Shown: in pieces, positions 56,683 through 64,000 of the stretch
Numbering within the stretch: the first letter of the stretch is position 1
Layout of the letters: every line of letters begins with the position of its first letter
IMG/VR virus record: IMGVR_UViG_3300031344_000005
Coordinates: 18,816-82,815 of that record
Reading direction: 5' to 3' (one strand)
DNA from: a virus
DNA: 64,000 nt
The notes under the pieces: model-generated
Databases searched by the model: none
The model's input: only the letters and a program-made list of their open reading frames with translations
What the model was told of the DNA's origin: nothing
Made by a program: the position numbers and the translations under genes

Positions 56683-57198
56683 ATGAGCGAGCCTACGGTA
56701 ATTCAGAAGCGAGCCATTGACGTTACCCCTCACAACCATGCCTTGTGGTGTTCGGTTGAGGGGCTCAACAAGGGAGAGCCGTTCGCCAACACCATCGAGT
56801 TTCGGGATTGGGGAGAGGATGATAGCTACATCATTTTCGGGATCGACACTCACAACGGATTCAGCGCGGATCCCAACGAATTTATGAGCGTCGTCGAAGT
56901 GGATCCAGGTGTCTCGGCTGTTTTGCTCGCCGAGTGGCTCAAGACCGACGCCGACAGGATGGCGAAGCGCCCGGTGCCGACCGTAGCGTGTCCGCACTGT
57001 GGAGGTGCCAAAATGAGCAATCCAACACAGGATGAAATAGACGCCGTCAAGCCAGCCATCATCACGGCGATCCAGGAGTGTGCCAATCTCGATGACCACT
57101 GGGGAGGCGTTGCCCGCGCGGCCATCGTCGCCCTCGACAGGGTCCGCGGGCTCGACGACAAGACGCCGGTGGTCCAGACCGACCGAAGGAAGCTATGA
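56683..57198 (+). CDS. Hypothetical protein (possible fusion; internal RBS and ATG at 57013)
   Basis: AGGAG RBS; GGAGG before the in-frame MSNPTQDE. Confidence 0.6.
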   Translation: MSEPTVIQKRAIDVTPHNHALWCSVEGLNKGEPFANTIEFRDWGEDDSYIIFGIDTHNGFSADPNEFMSVVEVDPGVSAVLLAEWLKTDADRMAKRPVPTVACPHCGGAKMSNPTQDEIDAVKPAIITAIQECANLDDHWGGVARAAIVALDRVRGLDDKTPVVQTDRRKL

Positions 57199-57398
57199 GG
57201 TTCCATCGCACTACCTGCGCGGCCTGCGGCGCCGCATGCACCGACCACCTGACTGTCAATCGCGATGGCCCTGGGCTCGGGCCGGCGGTTGCGGTCTGCG
57301 AGACGTGCGCGCCATGCGGGCAGCCGGTGGAGGTGTTGTGGGAGGCGATGCGCCGGGCGAGCGCCCAGCGGGAACTGTTCGAGCCGGGGGAAACATGA
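57195..57398 (+). CDS. Small Zn-finger protein
   Basis: CAACG...VCETC. Confidence 0.6.
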   Translation: MRFHRTTCAACGAACTDHLTVNRDGPGLGPAVAVCETCAPCGQPVEVLWEAMRRASAQRELFEPGET

Positions 57399-58327
57399 AC
57401 GCGCCTTTCCCATTCTTTGGCGGTAAGCGCGAGATTACCGACATCATCTGGGCGCGCCTGGGTTCGCCGAGGCAGTACATCGAGCCGTTCTGTGGTTCGG
57501 CGGCTGTCCTGTTGGCAGCTCCCTCGCCCGCCTCGCTCGAAGTCGTCAACGACCTGAATGGATTCATCGCGAATTTCTGGCGCGCAGTGAAACACCAACC
57601 GGGTGCCGTCGCCGCCGAAGCTGACTATCCCGTCTCGCACATTGACCTGGGCGCCCGCCATGTGTGGCTGATGCAACAGCGTGATCGTATCGGCGCTGAG
57701 ATGCAGGACCCGCACTGGCCCGGCGACCCGCAGGTGGCCGGCTGGTGGCTGTGGGGACAGTGCTCATGGATTGGATCTGGCTGGTGCGAATGGGATCGCC
57801 AAATCCCGCACGTGAGCAACGCGGGGATGGGCGTGCAGGCGCTGGGCAAAATCCCGCACGTGAGCAACGCGGGGAGGGGTGTACAGGCGCTGGGCCAAGT
57901 TCCACACGTGAGCGACGCGGGGATGGGACTCCTCACGAGCGCCGGCCGTGTCGCCTGGAAGTGGCTGCATGAGCTGGCGGAGCGCCTCGAACGCGTGCGG
58001 GTCGTGCATGGCGAGTGGTCGCGCTGTCTCAATAACCACTACGGCGACACAGACACCGCCGTCTTCCTGGACCCGCCCTACCGAGAGTATGGTGCCCTGT
58101 ACGGCGCCGAAGCCGTGGCTGACGAAGTGGCGGCATGGGCGCGTGAACACGCAGACCTGCGCGTCTGCCTGTGCGGTCACGTCGGAGACTACGAGATGGG
58201 CGACGGGTGGGTGGTCGTACCGTGGAAACGCCCGCGGCTCACCTACTCGGGCAGCAACACGACCGACAAGGAAGCGCTGTGGTTCTCGCCACCGTGTGCG
58301 GGTGCTCGGCAGGGGCAACTATTTTGA
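57395..58327 (+). CDS. DNA adenine methyltransferase (D12/Dam-like)
   Basis: PFPFFGGK, YIEPFCGSAAV, EVVNDLN, FLDPPY; internal 16-aa tandem repeats. Confidence 0.9.
   Translation: MNAPFPFFGGKREITDIIWARLGSPRQYIEPFCGSAAVLLAAPSPASLEVVNDLNGFIANFWRAVKHQPGAVAAEADYPVSHIDLGARHVWLMQQRDRIGAEMQDPHWPGDPQVAGWWLWGQCSWIGSGWCEWDRQIPHVSNAGMGVQALGKIPHVSNAGRGVQALGQVPHVSDAGMGLLTSAGRVAWKWLHELAERLERVRVVHGEWSRCLNNHYGDTDTAVFLDPPYREYGALYGAEAVADEVAAWAREHADLRVCLCGHVGDYEMGDGWVVVPWKRPRLTYSGSNTTDKEALWFSPPCAGARQGQLF
57800..57929 (+). repeat. About 2.7 x 48-bp tandem repeat within the methyltransferase
   Basis: IPHVSNAGMGVQALGK / IPHVSNAGRGVQALGQ / VPHVSDAGMG. Confidence 0.85.
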
Positions 58328-58374
58328 TCCGAAGTAGCCCCACGCCGCCCGCGCGCGATGAGCGACGAAGGAGA

Positions 58375-58538
58375 TTGACAGCGCGCAGAGAATGCGCAAT
58401 GGTATTTGGACCACCCATGAACGAACATGATCGCGCCTTGAAATCCCTCGCCGTTCCCGCTACGTCGTTCATGGGTGGTACCTGGACCGACGCGGTTGAA
58501 GCGGCGATGGGTTTGAGGGCGCGAGAGAGGAGAGACCA
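58375..58538 (+). promoter_or_regulatory. Promoter plus structured leader, copy 1
   Basis: TTGACA-N17-AATGGT; 15-bp perfect stem 58410-58424/58465-58479; alternative stem 58431-58460/58494-58524. Confidence 0.65.
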
Positions 58539-58542
58539 ATGA
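58417..58542 (+). CDS. Putative leader peptide 1 (41 aa)
   Basis: MNEHDRALKSLAVPATSFMGGTWTDAVEAAMGLRARERRDQ; ATGA overlap with the next gene; similar to 59313-59429. Confidence 0.5.
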   Translation: MNEHDRALKSLAVPATSFMGGTWTDAVEAAMGLRARERRDQ

Positions 58543-59096
58543 AGATGCATCGTAAATACCGTCCCGAATTGCTCGTGTCGAAGGACGCAACCAGGCCGCA
58601 GTTAGTCTGCCTGCATCTGGACACGAAGGCCAAGGTTCTCGTCGCGACGAACGGACGAGGCATGGTGACCGTTCCTGTCGATGTCGACAACAAAGATGTT
58701 GACGGTCCGGTGTTTATTGAGGCAATGGCCGAGGCTCGGAAGGTGCAAAGAGCGTCCATGAAGAAGGAGGTAACCTGGCTCCACGTGCGAGCGTTGCACA
58801 AGTTATTGGACGTCGGAAGGATGCTGTTTCGTCGCCCGACTGACCATAGGTATCCGGAGTGGGAGAACGTCAAGCCGTCATTCAAGGCCAAGGACGCCGG
58901 TACAATTACCTTTGCGCTTGACCCGGCTTTGCTTTTGAACATCGCAAATGCGATCGACCATTCGTCGAAGTTTGTTCGTGTAACAATGGCAGTATCCAAG
59001 AAGGATCCAACCGTCTCCGACGAATGCGAGCCCATGATTGTCACGACCGACGACGATGAGCCAGCGGTCGGAGTTATGATGCAGGTTAGGTGGTGA
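58539..59096 (+). CDS. DNA polymerase III beta-clamp-like protein (partial-domain phage type)
   Basis: SKDATRPQL..LHLD, LVATNGR, YPEWENV.P, FALDPALL, GVMMQVR. Confidence 0.7.
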   Translation: MKMHRKYRPELLVSKDATRPQLVCLHLDTKAKVLVATNGRGMVTVPVDVDNKDVDGPVFIEAMAEARKVQRASMKKEVTWLHVRALHKLLDVGRMLFRRPTDHRYPEWENVKPSFKAKDAGTITFALDPALLLNIANAIDHSSKFVRVTMAVSKKDPTVSDECEPMIVTTDDDEPAVGVMMQVRW

Positions 59097-59296
59097 ACAC
59101 CTCGATCGAGTCGCTGGCATGGTGGAAGGTGCACATGGCGGCCCAGCGCAAGGCCACGGCTGCCGGTGCGTGCTGGTCGTGCGCGGCCGAGATGGGGTGC
59201 AGGGCCACGGACAGTCCAGGAGAGCAGCGCGGGGTCGAGCTGCACCCGGAGTGCGCACGGAAGATTGGCTTGACTTTTCCAGCGGAGTCGGCGTAG
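59093..59296 (+). CDS. Small Zn-binding hypothetical protein
   Basis: GTGA-coupled; CWSC...HPEC. Confidence 0.55.
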   Translation: MNTSIESLAWWKVHMAAQRKATAAGACWSCAAEMGCRATDSPGEQRGVELHPECARKIGLTFPAESA

Positions 59297-59431
59297 AGTA
59301 GCGACGCTAGCCATGATGAACCATTTTCGTACTCTGAAGAGTGCCGCCGTTCCCGCCACGTCCATCATGGCTAGCACCTGGTCGGATGCGGTTGCAGCGA
59401 CGGCACCCTTGAGGGTACGAGGAGTCTGACC
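59270..59431 (+). promoter_or_regulatory. Promoter plus structured leader, copy 2
   Basis: TTGACT-N18-TAGAGT; 13-bp perfect stem 59306-59318/59363-59375; alternative stem 59327-59346/59401-59420. Confidence 0.65.
59313..59429 (+). CDS. Putative leader peptide 2 (38 aa)
   Basis: MMNHFRTLKSAAVPATSIMASTWSDAVAATAPLRVRGV; stops 2 nt before the initiator TTG. Confidence 0.5.
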   Translation: MMNHFRTLKSAAVPATSIMASTWSDAVAATAPLRVRGV

Positions 59432-60430
59432 TTGTCCTGGGTGAAGCTCGATGACGGTTTTTTCTCTAACCGCAAGGTTCGTAGCGTGAGCGCAACGGCA
59501 GCGCTTTTTGATATCGCTTCCTTTTGCTTCTGTGCCCAGTCGGAAAACGACGGGCATGTCCTAACCGGAGACGTCCAGATGATCGCCGCAATGGTCCGAG
59601 TTAGGTCACCGGCGAAATACGTCAAGGAGTTGGTGCAGGTAGGTCTATGGGATGTTGAGCCAGGCGGTTACAACGTCCACGATTTCCTTGAATACAATCC
59701 AAGCCACGCTGAGCTAATCGAGAAGAGGAGAGTGGCCAACGAACGATCCGAAATGCGAGCTGACGCATCCCTGATGGGACGCATAAGAGCAAGGGACAAT
59801 TCTGCGTGTAGGTACTGTGGGAGGCAGGTCAACTGGAAAGATAGACGCGGAGAACTCGGTGGGACCTACGATCACGTGATTCCGATGTCGAAGGGAGGTC
59901 CGAGTACCTACGGAAACGTCGTCGTCGCGTGTAGGGCCTGCAACTCAAAGAAGCGTGACAAGACGCTAGAAGAAGCTGGAATGGTGTTGCAGGACATTGG
60001 TAACTTACCAGTAAATATACCGATAACTATTCAGTCATCCCCTCCCGTCCCCTCCGGATCCCCCCTGTCTTTCAGTGCTTCCGGATCCGGAGCGCGCGTA
60101 GCAACTGGCGGGCCAATCAAGCCAGACACGGCCTACAGCTTGGTCTGGGCAATCAAGACGGCGGTTGAGGCGGCGCAGCCCAAGAACGGCATGTGGGCGC
60201 CCGATACGTTCGCCCAGGAGAACGCCTCGCGCCTGCTGGTGGGGCTGGGGGATGCGGCGAAGGCCATGCCAGAGCTTGAGCGCAAGATCGGGCTGTTCGC
60301 CGCGGACCCTGAGATGCAGCCATGGACGGTCAAGAAGTTCTGCGACCAGTACAACGGCATCGGGCACGATAAGCCAGGGCGGGCGGCCCAGCCGCGGGCC
60401 GTGCACCATCCGCGCTTAGGGGGCCGCTGA
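59432..60430 (+). CDS. Replication initiator/replisome organiser with internal HNH domain
   Basis: MSWVKLDDGFFSNRKV..VHDFLEYNPS N-terminus; RD..CRYCG..DHVIP.SKGG..N.VVAC..CN..K; upstream of DnaB. Confidence 0.8.
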   Translation: MSWVKLDDGFFSNRKVRSVSATAALFDIASFCFCAQSENDGHVLTGDVQMIAAMVRVRSPAKYVKELVQVGLWDVEPGGYNVHDFLEYNPSHAELIEKRRVANERSEMRADASLMGRIRARDNSACRYCGRQVNWKDRRGELGGTYDHVIPMSKGGPSTYGNVVVACRACNSKKRDKTLEEAGMVLQDIGNLPVNIPITIQSSPPVPSGSPLSFSASGSGARVATGGPIKPDTAYSLVWAIKTAVEAAQPKNGMWAPDTFAQENASRLLVGLGDAAKAMPELERKIGLFAADPEMQPWTVKKFCDQYNGIGHDKPGRAAQPRAVHHPRLGGR

Positions 60431-61917
60431 TGGAACTCGACGGCCTTTCCCGTGTCCCCCCGCACGACTTAGTGGCTGAGGCCAGTGTGCTTGGCTGCGT
60501 TCTGTTGGGGGCCGACAGGGCCCTCGCGCTGGTGTCTGACCTGCGCGCCGATGACTTCTTCCTTCCGGAGCACCGTGAGGCGTGGGCAGGCATCGGCGCC
60601 CTGGTCGAGCGCGGCGTGCCGGTGGACATCGTGAGCCTGGGCGATGAGATCAAGGCACGGGGAGTGGCGGGGCGTTTCGAGGGTGGTTGGCAGACCTGGG
60701 CGGTTGCGACGGCCGGCGGGGTGTCGACTTGGCAGAATGTAGGTCACCATGCAACGATCGTGCGTGAGAAGGCAACATTGCGGAAGCTCTTAACCATCTG
60801 CACGGAAGTGGTTTGCCGCTGCTACCAGAGCGAGTCGGCGGACGAGGTGCTGGGACAGGCTCGGGAGGGAGTAGCGGCGCTAGAAGTCGACGGACATGAG
60901 GGCGGCCCAGTCAAGATCGGGACGGCCCTGAGCGGCGTCATTGAGGTCATCCAATCGCGAGCCGCCGGCAAGGTAAGCGAGCATATGGTGCTGACGGGGA
61001 TCGAAACGCTTGACTATGAGATCGGCGGCATGGCACCCGAGGAGGTTGTGGTGGTAGCCGGTAGACCTGGACAAGGTAAGACCGCTTTTGCTGACTGCGT
61101 GGCGACCTACAACGGCCTCGCCGACGTTCCGTGTCTGTTTTTCTCGTTGGAGATGTCGCTCCAGCAGCTCATCGAGCGCGTGCTGTCCTTGCGGAGTGAT
61201 ATACCCGCCAGCCACCTCCGCTCGGGCCGTGGCGAAGGCTACAAGCGGTTGGACAAGGCCGCATTTACGAAGCTGACCGCCGCATCCGAGGAGTTGTACA
61301 ACGTGCCGCTGTGGATCGAGCCGCGGGCGCTACCACTTGGGCGCATCGTGGGAGAGTCGCGCCGATGGCACGCCCGCCACGTGCGCGGCAAGGGTAAGAC
61401 GCTCGGGCTCATCGCCGTGGACTACCTGCAACTGGTGGCCGTAGAAACCAAAAACCGCGATCGTAGTCGGGAAGAACAGGTGGCGAGGATTTCCAAGACC
61501 CTGAAGATGCTGGCCAAGGAGCTGCAGGTGCCACTGATGGAACTGTCGCAGCTCAACCGCGCGATCGAAAGACGCGGCGGCGAGCCGGTCATGTCGGACA
61601 TCCGCGAGTCAGGCGCCATTGAACAGGATGCCAGCATCATCCTGTGTCCATGGAGGGGTGAGGCGGCCGACGATCCAGACAAGAAGAACGAAGACGGCGA
61701 CGCGGACATCATCATCCTAAAAAACCGTGGCGGTCAGACAGGTAAAGCACCGGCTCACTGGCTTTCAAAGACGATGGAGTATCGGCACGATTGGGGGCGC
61801 ACGGCGCATGGAAGGCCGGCGGACTTCGGTGGAGAGCGCTCGCTAATTGACGACTACCAGATCAAGCAGCCACTTGATCCCCACGCCTCCCCGCCATCCT
61901 GGCACGACAAGGACTGA
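60430..61917 (+). CDS. dnaB: Replicative DNA helicase DnaB
   Basis: PPHD..AEASVLG, AGRPGQGKT, FSLEM, VDYLQL, SQLNR, DIRESGAIEQDA, KNRGG. Confidence 0.96.
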   Translation: MELDGLSRVPPHDLVAEASVLGCVLLGADRALALVSDLRADDFFLPEHREAWAGIGALVERGVPVDIVSLGDEIKARGVAGRFEGGWQTWAVATAGGVSTWQNVGHHATIVREKATLRKLLTICTEVVCRCYQSESADEVLGQAREGVAALEVDGHEGGPVKIGTALSGVIEVIQSRAAGKVSEHMVLTGIETLDYEIGGMAPEEVVVVAGRPGQGKTAFADCVATYNGLADVPCLFFSLEMSLQQLIERVLSLRSDIPASHLRSGRGEGYKRLDKAAFTKLTAASEELYNVPLWIEPRALPLGRIVGESRRWHARHVRGKGKTLGLIAVDYLQLVAVETKNRDRSREEQVARISKTLKMLAKELQVPLMELSQLNRAIERRGGEPVMSDIRESGAIEQDASIILCPWRGEAADDPDKKNEDGDADIIILKNRGGQTGKAPAHWLSKTMEYRHDWGRTAHGRPADFGGERSLIDDYQIKQPLDPHASPPSWHDKD

Positions 61918-63444: not shown

Positions 63445-64000
63445 ATGTGCAAGACGTTCTCGTTCTACGCCGCAAAAACCGGCGATTTCTATTCGCTGAC
63501 CGACCACACAGACGCGCATTCGATGATCGCTACCGTGTTTGGTCTGCGCGACAATGACGTGAGCTACTACGCCGAGAATTTGGCGAAGGGTGAATTTACC
63601 CCACCCGAAGACACGAAGTTGTGGTCAGACCTGAGCAAGTGGACGTTGACCGTCGACGAGAAAGAAACCCCGGTATGGTTAGATCAAGAGAAGGCTCGGG
63701 CGTACATGGAGCGGCTGATTCGCCCTATGTTCGTGACGAATGAGCGGCAATGGCTCGTCGGTGGATGTTGGATTTTCGACGGCGAGAAGGCGACGGCCAA
63801 AGGAGTTCTGAACGGTCGGATCGTTGGAGTGATCAACGGGGCGTACTTGGCCGGGGCGAACTTGGACGGGGCGAACTTGGCCGGGGCGTACTTGGCCGGG
63901 GCGAACTTGGACAGGGCGTACTTGGCCGGGGCGAACTTGGCCAGGGCGTACTTGGCCAGGGCGAACTTGGCCAGGGCGTACTTGGCCGGGGCGAACTTGG
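63445..64000 (+). CDS. Pentapeptide-repeat protein (3' truncated)
   Basis: AGGAGG RBS; MCKTFSFY...; from ~63838, 15-bp repeats encoding A(Y/N)L(A/D)(G/R). Confidence 0.85.
   Translation, partial: MCKTFSFYAAKTGDFYSLTDHTDAHSMIATVFGLRDNDVSYYAENLAKGEFTPPEDTKLWSDLSKWTLTVDEKETPVWLDQEKARAYMERLIRPMFVTNERQWLVGGCWIFDGEKATAKGVLNGRIVGVINGAYLAGANLDGANLAGAYLAGANLDRAYLAGANLARAYLARANLARAYLAGANL

Follow-up and report, generated by a model that had tools for sequence, protein, structure and literature searches.

The last 64 kb of the 82.8-kb IMG/VR virus record IMGVR_UViG_3300031344_000005, from an uncultured soil phage, carries two copies of a compact element of ~130 nucleotides (nt) immediately upstream of replication genes; this stretch of 64,000 nt is called the window below, and coordinates given without a contig name refer to it. 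The element combines a promoter-like site with a region that can pair in two ways, as a 5' hairpin (P1) or as a longer hairpin (P2), and with a short open reading frame (ORF) that begins inside P1 and ends at the start codon of the next gene. We think, with moderate confidence, that it is the leader of an mRNA, bistable and with an upstream ORF whose translation is coupled to that of the next gene, and its arrangement suggests that such leaders probably set how much of the downstream replication genes is translated.

An earlier note, made from the letters of this DNA, had proposed promoters, P1 stems that bury an ATG, a common core, a long second helix and small ORFs ahead of both genes, and each of these lies where it had been placed. 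A covariance-model search of the whole 82.8-kb record finds the element at these two places only, at 58410-58541 (copy 1) and 59306-59434 (copy 2); both copies, and all window genes described with them, are on the plus strand. The promoter-like site of copy 1 (58375-58403), read in the sequence and by a relaxed scan, consists of TTGACA (58375-58380), 17 nt and AATGGT (58398-58403), followed by 6 nt, and its predicted transcription start (+1) is 58410. P1 of copy 1 (58410-58479) has arms at 58410-58424 and 58465-58479 that form 15 base pairs (bp) with 100% complementarity around a 40-nt loop and bury the ATG at 58417; P2 (58431-58524) is a long imperfect hairpin, found by folding and covariation, whose apex reuses the 3' arm of P1. 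The leader ORF (58417-58542, 41 amino acids (aa)) ends in a TGA that overlaps the ATG of the next gene at 58539 as ATGA, and that gene (58539-59096) encodes a 185-aa protein that is beta-clamp-domain-like by predicted structure. The promoter-like site of copy 2 (59270-59299) has TTGACT (59270-59275), 18 nt, TAGAGT (59294-59299) and 6 nt before a predicted +1 at 59306. Its P1 (59306-59375) pairs 59306-59318 with 59363-59375 in 13 perfect bp (within a longer repeat, 59306-59321 and 59360-59375, of 16 nt and 94% complementarity with one A-C) and buries the ATG at 59313, and the base of its P2 (59324-59423) extends into the GAGGAG Shine-Dalgarno sequence of the initiator gene. Its 38-aa leader ORF (59313-59429) ends in a TGA 2 nt before the TTG at 59432, which starts a gene for a replication initiator with an inserted HNH domain (59432-60430); the TGA of the latter overlaps the ATG (TGATG) of a gene for a DnaB-type replicative helicase (60430-61917, Pfam/PHROG-type profile matches). 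Hardly any gaps are needed to align the copies from the -35 hexamer to the next start codon, which is 58375 (TTGACA) to 58539 (ATG) in copy 1 and 59270 (TTGACT) to 59432 (TTG) in copy 2. The core CGCCGTTCCCGCYACGTC, an 18-mer common to both, occurs exactly twice in the window (chance expectation 0.42 with 3 mismatches allowed), as does another common 24-mer (0 expected).

Covariance models built from the two window copies (R1) and from five sequences (R2) give five distinct versions of the element on six contigs: copy 1 (the same as on L005 and L013), copy 2, L046, L022 (the same as L044a) and L044b, the second element of L044. The last three are additions to the pair from which the earlier note had started, and R1 scores them at 74.6 bits (L046), 33 bits (L022, identical in L043, L044 and L061) and 26.6 bits (L044b). 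Copy 1, copy 2 and L046 are referred to as A-type, and L022 and L044b as B-type.

Is the pairing kept when the sequence of the arms changes? In the inner 11 pairs of P1 all 55 of 55 cells of the five versions are paired and 9 pairs have changed on both sides; on four of five measures none of 500 shuffles came up to the observed value, on the fifth, further pair types, 136 of 500 did, and slid controls were at most 43% paired. Counted by subtype, P1 is paired in 44 of 45 cells of the A-type trio (8 of 15 pairs changed on both sides) and in 26 of 26 cells of the B-type pair (6 of 13 changed on both sides), and between copy 1 and copy 2 alone 5 of 15 pairs have changed on both sides with 1 cell unpaired. 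P2 behaves similarly: between copy 1 and copy 2, 8 of its 36 pairs have changed on both sides, 4 on one side via G-U, and none is broken. The claim that pairing is kept in spite of divergence of the stems thus holds for the two window copies, and the helices covary in relatives as well. In the A-type trio 102 of 108 P2 cells are paired and 11 of 36 pairs have changed on both sides (shuffles: 0 of 500 on four of five measures, 1 of 500 on further pair types). A plain MAFFT alignment of all five versions (A9) misplaces parts of the B-type 3' arm and thereby gives many broken P2 cells, and for this reason P2 was counted by subtype and in an alignment fitted to the covariance model (A14). In A14, which leans towards the model because of that fitting, 92% of 162 P2 cells are paired and 19 of 35 pairs have changed on both sides; shuffles reached this in 0 of 500 cases on four of five measures and in 5 of 500 on further pair types, and slid controls were at most 45% paired. 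That the arms should pair perfectly with five different sequences is hard to account for by anything but a conserved helix.

P2 is a helix of 35-40 bp in which mismatches are of 1 nt only. Its minimum free energy (MFE) is -60.0 kcal/mol (z -4.8) in copy 1 and -53.6 kcal/mol (z -3.3) in copy 2, and 0 of 200 shuffles were as stable in either case. Because the 3' arm of P1 forms the apex of P2 (columns 56-65 are common to both), the two folds are mutually exclusive. Column 58 covaries both with its P1 partner (column 13) and with its P2 partner (column 79), as two alternative pairings predict. The polarity of the fold can be read from two kinds of evidence: among P2 cells that are not Watson-Crick pairs G-U outnumbers A-C by 24 to 3 (P1 of L046 also has 2 G-U pairs), and the plus strand folds better than the minus strand in 5 of 6 tests (e.g. 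-69.7 versus -46.1 kcal/mol in L044b, with a tie in copy 2), so that the plus strand is what folds. Given the fixed register of the fold with the promoter, RNA is the natural reading. P2 is followed by GAGAGG.. or GAGGAG.. and not by a U-run, and a scan found no terminator-like site at P2; in this the element differs from trp/his-type attenuators with their terminator hairpin and U-run.

The register is as follows: all five versions have a sigma-70-like site made up of TTGAC(N) or TTGCAA, 17-18 nt and a -10-like hexamer, and exactly 6 nt separate it from the first base of P1. When both strands were scanned from -60 to +220 with relaxed criteria, four of the five versions were flagged at this site, which is the only one on either strand to recur at the same position. 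The version missed is L044b, whose -10-like hexamer, TCTCAT, is without an A at position 2, and a stricter scan of 57500-60500 called site 2 only and not site 1. In three of five versions P1 pairing stops at the predicted +1, and in the other two it continues upstream by 1 bp. The register is what one would expect of a transcript whose first base is that of P1, and the predicted 5' end agrees with the one proposed earlier for the two window copies. The spacer of promoter site 1 (58381-58397) contains a GC hairpin that was flagged as terminator-like, and L005 has a similar one at the corresponding position; it could serve the methyltransferase gene upstream as its terminator, or be an operator.

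In what order would the two helices form? Nascent RNA that reaches the end of P1 is computed to fold as P1 (-26 to -29 kcal/mol; -27.7 in copy 1), and P1 is the computed MFE structure of the growing chain in all five versions up to a length of 93-114 nt. For the full leader P2 is favored (-54 to -70 kcal/mol), with an equilibrium P1 pair probability of at most 0.012. A transient 5' hairpin that hides the translation start is familiar from type I toxin mRNAs such as hok and aapA3. As in those mRNAs, the 5' hairpin computed here is the best fold of the nascent chain and the start is hidden until a stabler fold takes over; unlike in those mRNAs, it is the late fold that leaves the start exposed, the searches described below turned up no antisense RNA, and the peptides are no hydrophobic toxins (in all four examined the longest stretch of apolar residues is 3-5 long, and 5-12 residues are charged). 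Two further complementarities are present. The six 5'-terminal bases are complementary to the apical loop of P2, so that a pseudoknot of the 5' tail with this loop is conceivable, and the P1 loop is complementary to the P2 3' arm, which adjoins the ribosome-binding site (RBS) of the initiator gene; the folding tools used here handle nested structures only.

The leader start codon lies in the 5' arm of P1 in all five versions: three have an ATG at +8, L022 has one at +10, and L044b has a GTG, likewise at +10. From there the frame is open to the junction with the next gene in every version (36-42 codons, running through all of P2), and the other two frames mostly have 1-5 stops. As had been noticed for the window copies, it ends on, or 2 nt before, the downstream start in four of the five distinct versions, with the junctions ATGA (copy 1 and L005), GTGA (L046), TGATG (L022) and TGA-2-TTG (copy 2). 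Real gene pairs of the same operon use the same style of junction, e.g. initiator/DnaB with TGATG. All five versions keep the helices and the open frame, the two features that the earlier note had named as diagnostic in homologues. The Shine-Dalgarno sequence or start of the downstream gene is partly covered in copy 2 and L022, by P2 or by an additional hairpin.

From these features the following sequence of events may be proposed. Each copy would be a cassette of a promoter and a structured 5' mRNA leader, with a transcript that starts on the first base of P1. P1 would form first and hide the leader start on the nascent RNA, and refolding to P2, which becomes possible after the next ~40 nt, would free the 5' ~20 nt including the start codon. 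Ribosomes translating the leader would melt P2, terminate at the downstream start and either re-initiate there or open that start for other ribosomes, so that the output of the downstream genes (clamp-like protein, initiator-DnaB and others) would follow the balance between P1 and P2 and any trigger that might shift it. What would count is the act of translating the leader and not the peptide made. The core in the middle of P2 may be the binding site of a phage-specific factor; within each subtype it is conserved, and the two elements of a single phage share a subtype (A-type in the window, B-type in L044).

Several observations weigh against the idea of a bistable, translated leader. The covariation comes from only five sequences, all from related phages, and its cells are not independent events; the lean of A14 mentioned above is to be counted here as well. 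The computed direct-path barrier from the P1-only state to P2 is 19-28 kcal/mol, so that spontaneous switching may be slow and an intermediate or helper needed. No Shine-Dalgarno sequence precedes the leader start in any of the five versions, and the predicted leader 5' UTR (untranslated region) of 7-9 nt makes these ORFs not truly leaderless. Expression from leaderless-type starts in E. coli drops as 5' nucleotides are added. In L044b the frame from the GTG at +10 enters the downstream ATG in-frame and without a stop, and the downstream genes of copy 1, L005 and L044b have a good Shine-Dalgarno sequence of their own just outside P2, so that they may be independent of the leader. Lastly, two of three dN/dS values given below leave room for some constraint on the peptide. 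A precedent for such starts is the set of E. coli ORFs with an AUG at the 5' end of the mRNA (5'-uAUG), which lack a Shine-Dalgarno sequence, can be translated and in some cases affect the downstream cistron (available sections of PMC4965119); there the AUG is the very 5' end and those sections describe no conserved bistable structure, whereas here it lies at +8 or +10.

What if the leader RNA acts in cis by a route other than leader translation, the open frame being a by-product? We regard this as doubtful, although it would account for a good deal. The helices are far better conserved than the peptide, a Shine-Dalgarno sequence is lacking before the leader start, L044b has no separate leader stop, P2 is a long helix interrupted by single mismatches only, and the very first nucleotide of the predicted transcript is paired in P1. 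That both elements of one phage share a subtype and core fits a phage-specific binding factor. The absence of a U-run after P2 is against such a scheme, and two features of the frame are against its being a by-product: the start codon is kept at +8/+10 in five of five versions despite changing arm sequence, and the end of the frame is kept at the downstream start in four of five versions with four different junction sequences. In variants of this explanation P2 could be a site of RNase III-type processing, P1 could be a stabilizer against 5' decay, the P2 core could be an operator at which a protein represses translation, or the RNA could modify RNA polymerase in the manner of put. Systems that invite comparison include the lambda N leader and T7 early RNA with their RNase III sites, com/mom of phage Mu, c4/icd-ant of phage P1 and the ompA 5' stabilizer. 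The put RNAs of phage HK022 are ~70 nt long, consist of two stem-loops that fold together and bind RNA polymerase, and putL and putR lie near the early promoters (available part of PMC9378689). Like putL and putR, the two copies here have diverged with their structure kept and lie just downstream of promoters, two per genome; unlike the two side-by-side put stem-loops described in that part of the source, the helices here share nucleotides and exclude each other, and a reading frame is conserved through both.

Control of a replication initiator through a translated leader and alternative RNA folds is textbook knowledge for plasmids, and the element seems to work most like the plasmid rep leaders (R1 tap-repA/CopA and I-complex repB/RNAI), by analogy, except that it fails their defining antisense feature. 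In R1 (IncFII), translation of a short leader ORF (tap) is needed for translation of the repA initiator and the leader is highly structured (available sections of PMC4344636), and in the I-complex plasmids (IncI/IncB/IncK) leader translation is likewise needed for initiator expression (available sections of PMC10286972). A short leader ORF at the initiator start in a highly structured leader is what the element has in common with R1 tap/CopT/CopA, and with the I-complex it shares a hairpin loop that is complementary to the segment before the initiator RBS (here the P1 loop and the P2 3' arm). The differences are considerable. Unlike in R1, no countertranscript promoter was found, the leader start is 7-9 nt from the predicted 5' end in a terminal hairpin, the context is a phage, the element also stands ahead of genes that are not initiators, and there is no sequence or Rfam relationship; unlike in the I-complex, the loop pairing grows into a hairpin of 35-40 bp that displaces the first stem and is not a short activating pseudoknot, and here too no antisense RNA was found.

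Control by such an antisense RNA, in which a minus-strand countertranscript like RNAI of I-complex repB/repY or CopA of R1 tap-repA would prevent translation of the leader by binding to the loop of P1 or the apex of P2, is quite improbable. In its favor are the plasmid precedents (available sections of PMC10286972 and PMC4344636), the leader ORF that ends at the initiator start, the long bulged hairpins typical of antisense targets and the stability of the minus-strand folds (-46 to -58 kcal/mol). Set against these, the relaxed scan found no minus-strand promoter-like site between -60 and +220 in any of the five versions (a scan for sigma-70 consensus only), the 82.8-kb record holds no other copy of the complement of the core, the 24 G-U against 3 A-C cells indicate selection on the plus-strand fold only, and Rfam families of the CopA type are among those that gave no match. 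Of the IncI/IncB analogy drawn by the earlier note, then, the leader ORF ending at the initiator start stands, and the antisense RNA containing the core that was to be looked for elsewhere in the genome did not turn up. Open-access full text yielded no phage replication module with leader control of this kind and no paper on this element.

A third explanation, that the frames of 36-42 aa are real genes (paralogues) for a functional small protein and that the hairpins only tune their expression, appears very improbable. It is true that the frame is open in all versions and that the A-type peptides share KS.AVPA and DAV.A. The peptide of leader ORF 1 is found letter for letter as cluster P0015 of a protein collection, and a profile of the three A-type peptides finds eight more variants (P0016-P0023) in metagenome protein sets. 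The ratio of nonsynonymous to synonymous change (dN/dS) is 0.45, 0.93 and 0.35 in three comparisons, so that two of the three point to some constraint and the third does not, and the differences are flat across codon positions (12/9/14, 16/14/14 and 9/9/12), with no sign of coding periodicity. The comparison of peptide with structure that had been suggested earlier thus comes out clearly in the better conservation of the helices and less clearly in dN/dS itself; the sequence of the peptide appears weakly constrained. Moreover, the B-type peptides, from leaders of the same RNA architecture, cannot be aligned with the A-type, the leader peptides match no Pfam or PHROG family, and the conserved peptide blocks coincide with the conserved paired core. 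In the extra peptides, residues encoded by the two P1 arms change together (PP..MGG, PA..MAG and PS..MDG; N..F versus H..C), as reverse-complementary arms would dictate; this is read from protein alone.

How did one phage come to have two such elements? Copy 1 is identical to the element of L005/L013 over 119 nt (58408-58526), and the gapless flanks of this identity match at 18 of 35, 24 of 35 and 10 of 15 positions (51-69%); the neighboring genes are 66-71% identical by BLAST. The P1 arm of copy 2 resembles those of L046 and L022. The two diverged copies pointed out by the earlier note are thus present, and they are not a simple duplication within the genome (119 of 119 nt agree between copy 1 and the L005 element); judging from these resemblances, they probably arrived by module exchange. 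Further variants of both copies are found in contigs of four rhizosphere metagenome runs, among the matches listed (e.g. a 5' arm like that of copy 1 with two changes), and among these matches the contigs diverge or end at the edges of the element (58381, 58431, 58530, 59302/59305 and 59415), which appear to mark mosaic or assembly break points. A site acting at the DNA level (operators, an origin or single-strand initiation signal, or a conserved linker for recombination of modules) would fit the 119-nt identity between poorly matching flanks and the break points at the edges, and is nevertheless scarcely credible, since five arm sequences with 100% pairing would need five repressor specificities, a double-stranded DNA site would not lead one to expect the G-U bias and strand asymmetry, the register of the element with promoter and stop/start junction is fixed, and a role as recombination boundary is compatible with RNA function.

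IMG/VR, JGI metagenomes and species genomes were scanned by exact motif, by peptide pattern and with proteins as guides; few true relatives came to light, and it was R1 that recognized the diverged versions among the loci retrieved. Four whole virus records were searched with R2, and no additional copy turned up in any of them. None of the 4227 Rfam families matched the window, L005, L044 or L046 at the gathering threshold, in agreement with the earlier view that the element is undescribed; at E<=10 the best sub-threshold match in 58000-59800 was to a miRNA family (E = 1.6). Scanning viral contigs with a 17-mer core gave 17 loci, of which 2 are real (L005 and L013) and 15 have no flanking similarity; the A-type gapped pattern gave L005/L013 only in viral contigs, and the peptide-pattern scan gave these two again and nothing further. 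A gapped-pattern match on L038 was a chance hit. Two loci that match the A-type pattern in metagenome-assembled genomes (MAGs) of Burkholderiales/Betaproteobacteria, L055 and L056, are GC-rich coding sequence without P1 or the outer part of P2 (17 bits) and are taken as unrelated, and no host is therefore drawn from those MAGs. The B-type pattern gave 11 loci, 1 of them real and from the record of L022. Used as a locus query, the 185-aa protein gave 8 stretches and no relatives; the initiator gave 14 loci, with the element on L022 only and the others sharing just the HNH or N-terminal part, and its alignment against species genomes gave no relatives. A metagenome scan gave 4 loci, one of which (L045) begins inside the initiator gene and has the leader position off the contig. 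GenBank phages gave no DNA match, and their protein matches were only to actinophage HNH genes at ~30% identity.

The gene that follows the element differs between contigs, which makes the element a portable cassette that is not bound to one gene. Copy 1 precedes the 185-aa protein, whose predicted structure has template-modeling (TM) scores of 0.76-0.77 to clusters carrying PF02767/PF02768; it matches phrog_3007 at 2e-7 and phrog_947 at 0.007 and has no Pfam match. Copy 2 precedes the initiator with the HNH insert and then DnaB; the element of L005 precedes a 69-aa Cys-rich ORF and then initiator and DnaB; that of L046 an initiator with a different middle domain; that of L022 a third type of initiator; and L044b a LAGLIDADG-like ORF. 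The initiators of element-bearing contigs share their C-terminal domain only. The proposal of a switch coordinating replication genes was thus too narrow, as the genes after the elements of L005 (69-aa ORF) and L044 (LAGLIDADG-like) make plain.

Some features of the neighborhood may be recorded here. The HNH nuclease domain of the window initiator (59432-60430) occupies about residues 105-190, between the N- and C-terminal domains, and the close relatives P0002-P0004 and P0013 are without it. A terminator-like hairpin with a T-run lies at 59488-59516, ~56 nt into the initiator gene and just after element 2, and could make transcription depend on translation of leader and initiator. In L045 a perfect inverted repeat of ~33 bp (401-498 of that contig) lies where the initiator gene encodes the linker that joins N- and C-terminal domains, with a weaker one in L022 (2893-2984); a replication origin inside the initiator gene is one possibility. 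Between the 185-aa gene and element 2 of the window is a 68-aa Cys-rich small ORF of unassigned function (59090-59296) that is syntenic with the element in L005, L046 and L022. In L022 (1427-2403, the same as L044 299-1275) its homologue stops after ~26 matching residues and is continued, in another frame, by a 306-aa HNH-endonuclease ORF, suggestive of a frameshift, fusion or replacement. Just upstream of the element in L046 (3120-3181) a frame reads AKKIGLTSAKASA and then a stop, like the C-terminus of the window's 68-aa ORF, and a complete 68-aa homologue lies 300 nt further upstream (2512-2829), the two being separated by a 116-aa ORF, as if an insertion had duplicated the junction. Further away, the D12-class adenine methyltransferase ORF upstream of copy 1 (57080-58327) has three tandem ~16-aa repeats (IPHVSNAG.G.QALG-like; 57830-57980) between its Pfam-matched and C-terminal parts, and a gene for a pentapeptide-repeat protein (63445-64000) runs off the end of the record, with a close homologue that is complete in L046 (6819-7457).

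Known so far from six contigs and eight peptide variants of rhizosphere/peat-type metagenomes, the element has a narrow range, and its immediate impact is limited. It is nevertheless a compact, strongly covarying RNA candidate without an Rfam family and a good candidate for a new RNA family, and it lends itself to experiment: the stop/start junction is a built-in reporter of function, and the two exclusive helices can be tested with a few compensatory mutants. Going beyond the bistable coupled leader, we would suggest, quite tentatively, that soil phages use it as a portable, antisense-free RNA timer or switch that is exchanged as a unit, whose subtype core is read by a phage-specific RNA-binding factor and which possibly forms the pseudoknot between 5' tail and P2 loop. 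If that were so, the cassette would gate early and replication genes (the clamp-like protein, three kinds of initiator, the small Cys-rich protein and the homing-endonuclease-like gene), all cassettes of one genome would respond together, and the mature tail-loop pseudoknot would protect the 5' end while the start codon is exposed. Its module-like exchange between phages, and the way it marks mosaic boundaries, bear on how phage genomes shuffle their regulatory parts.

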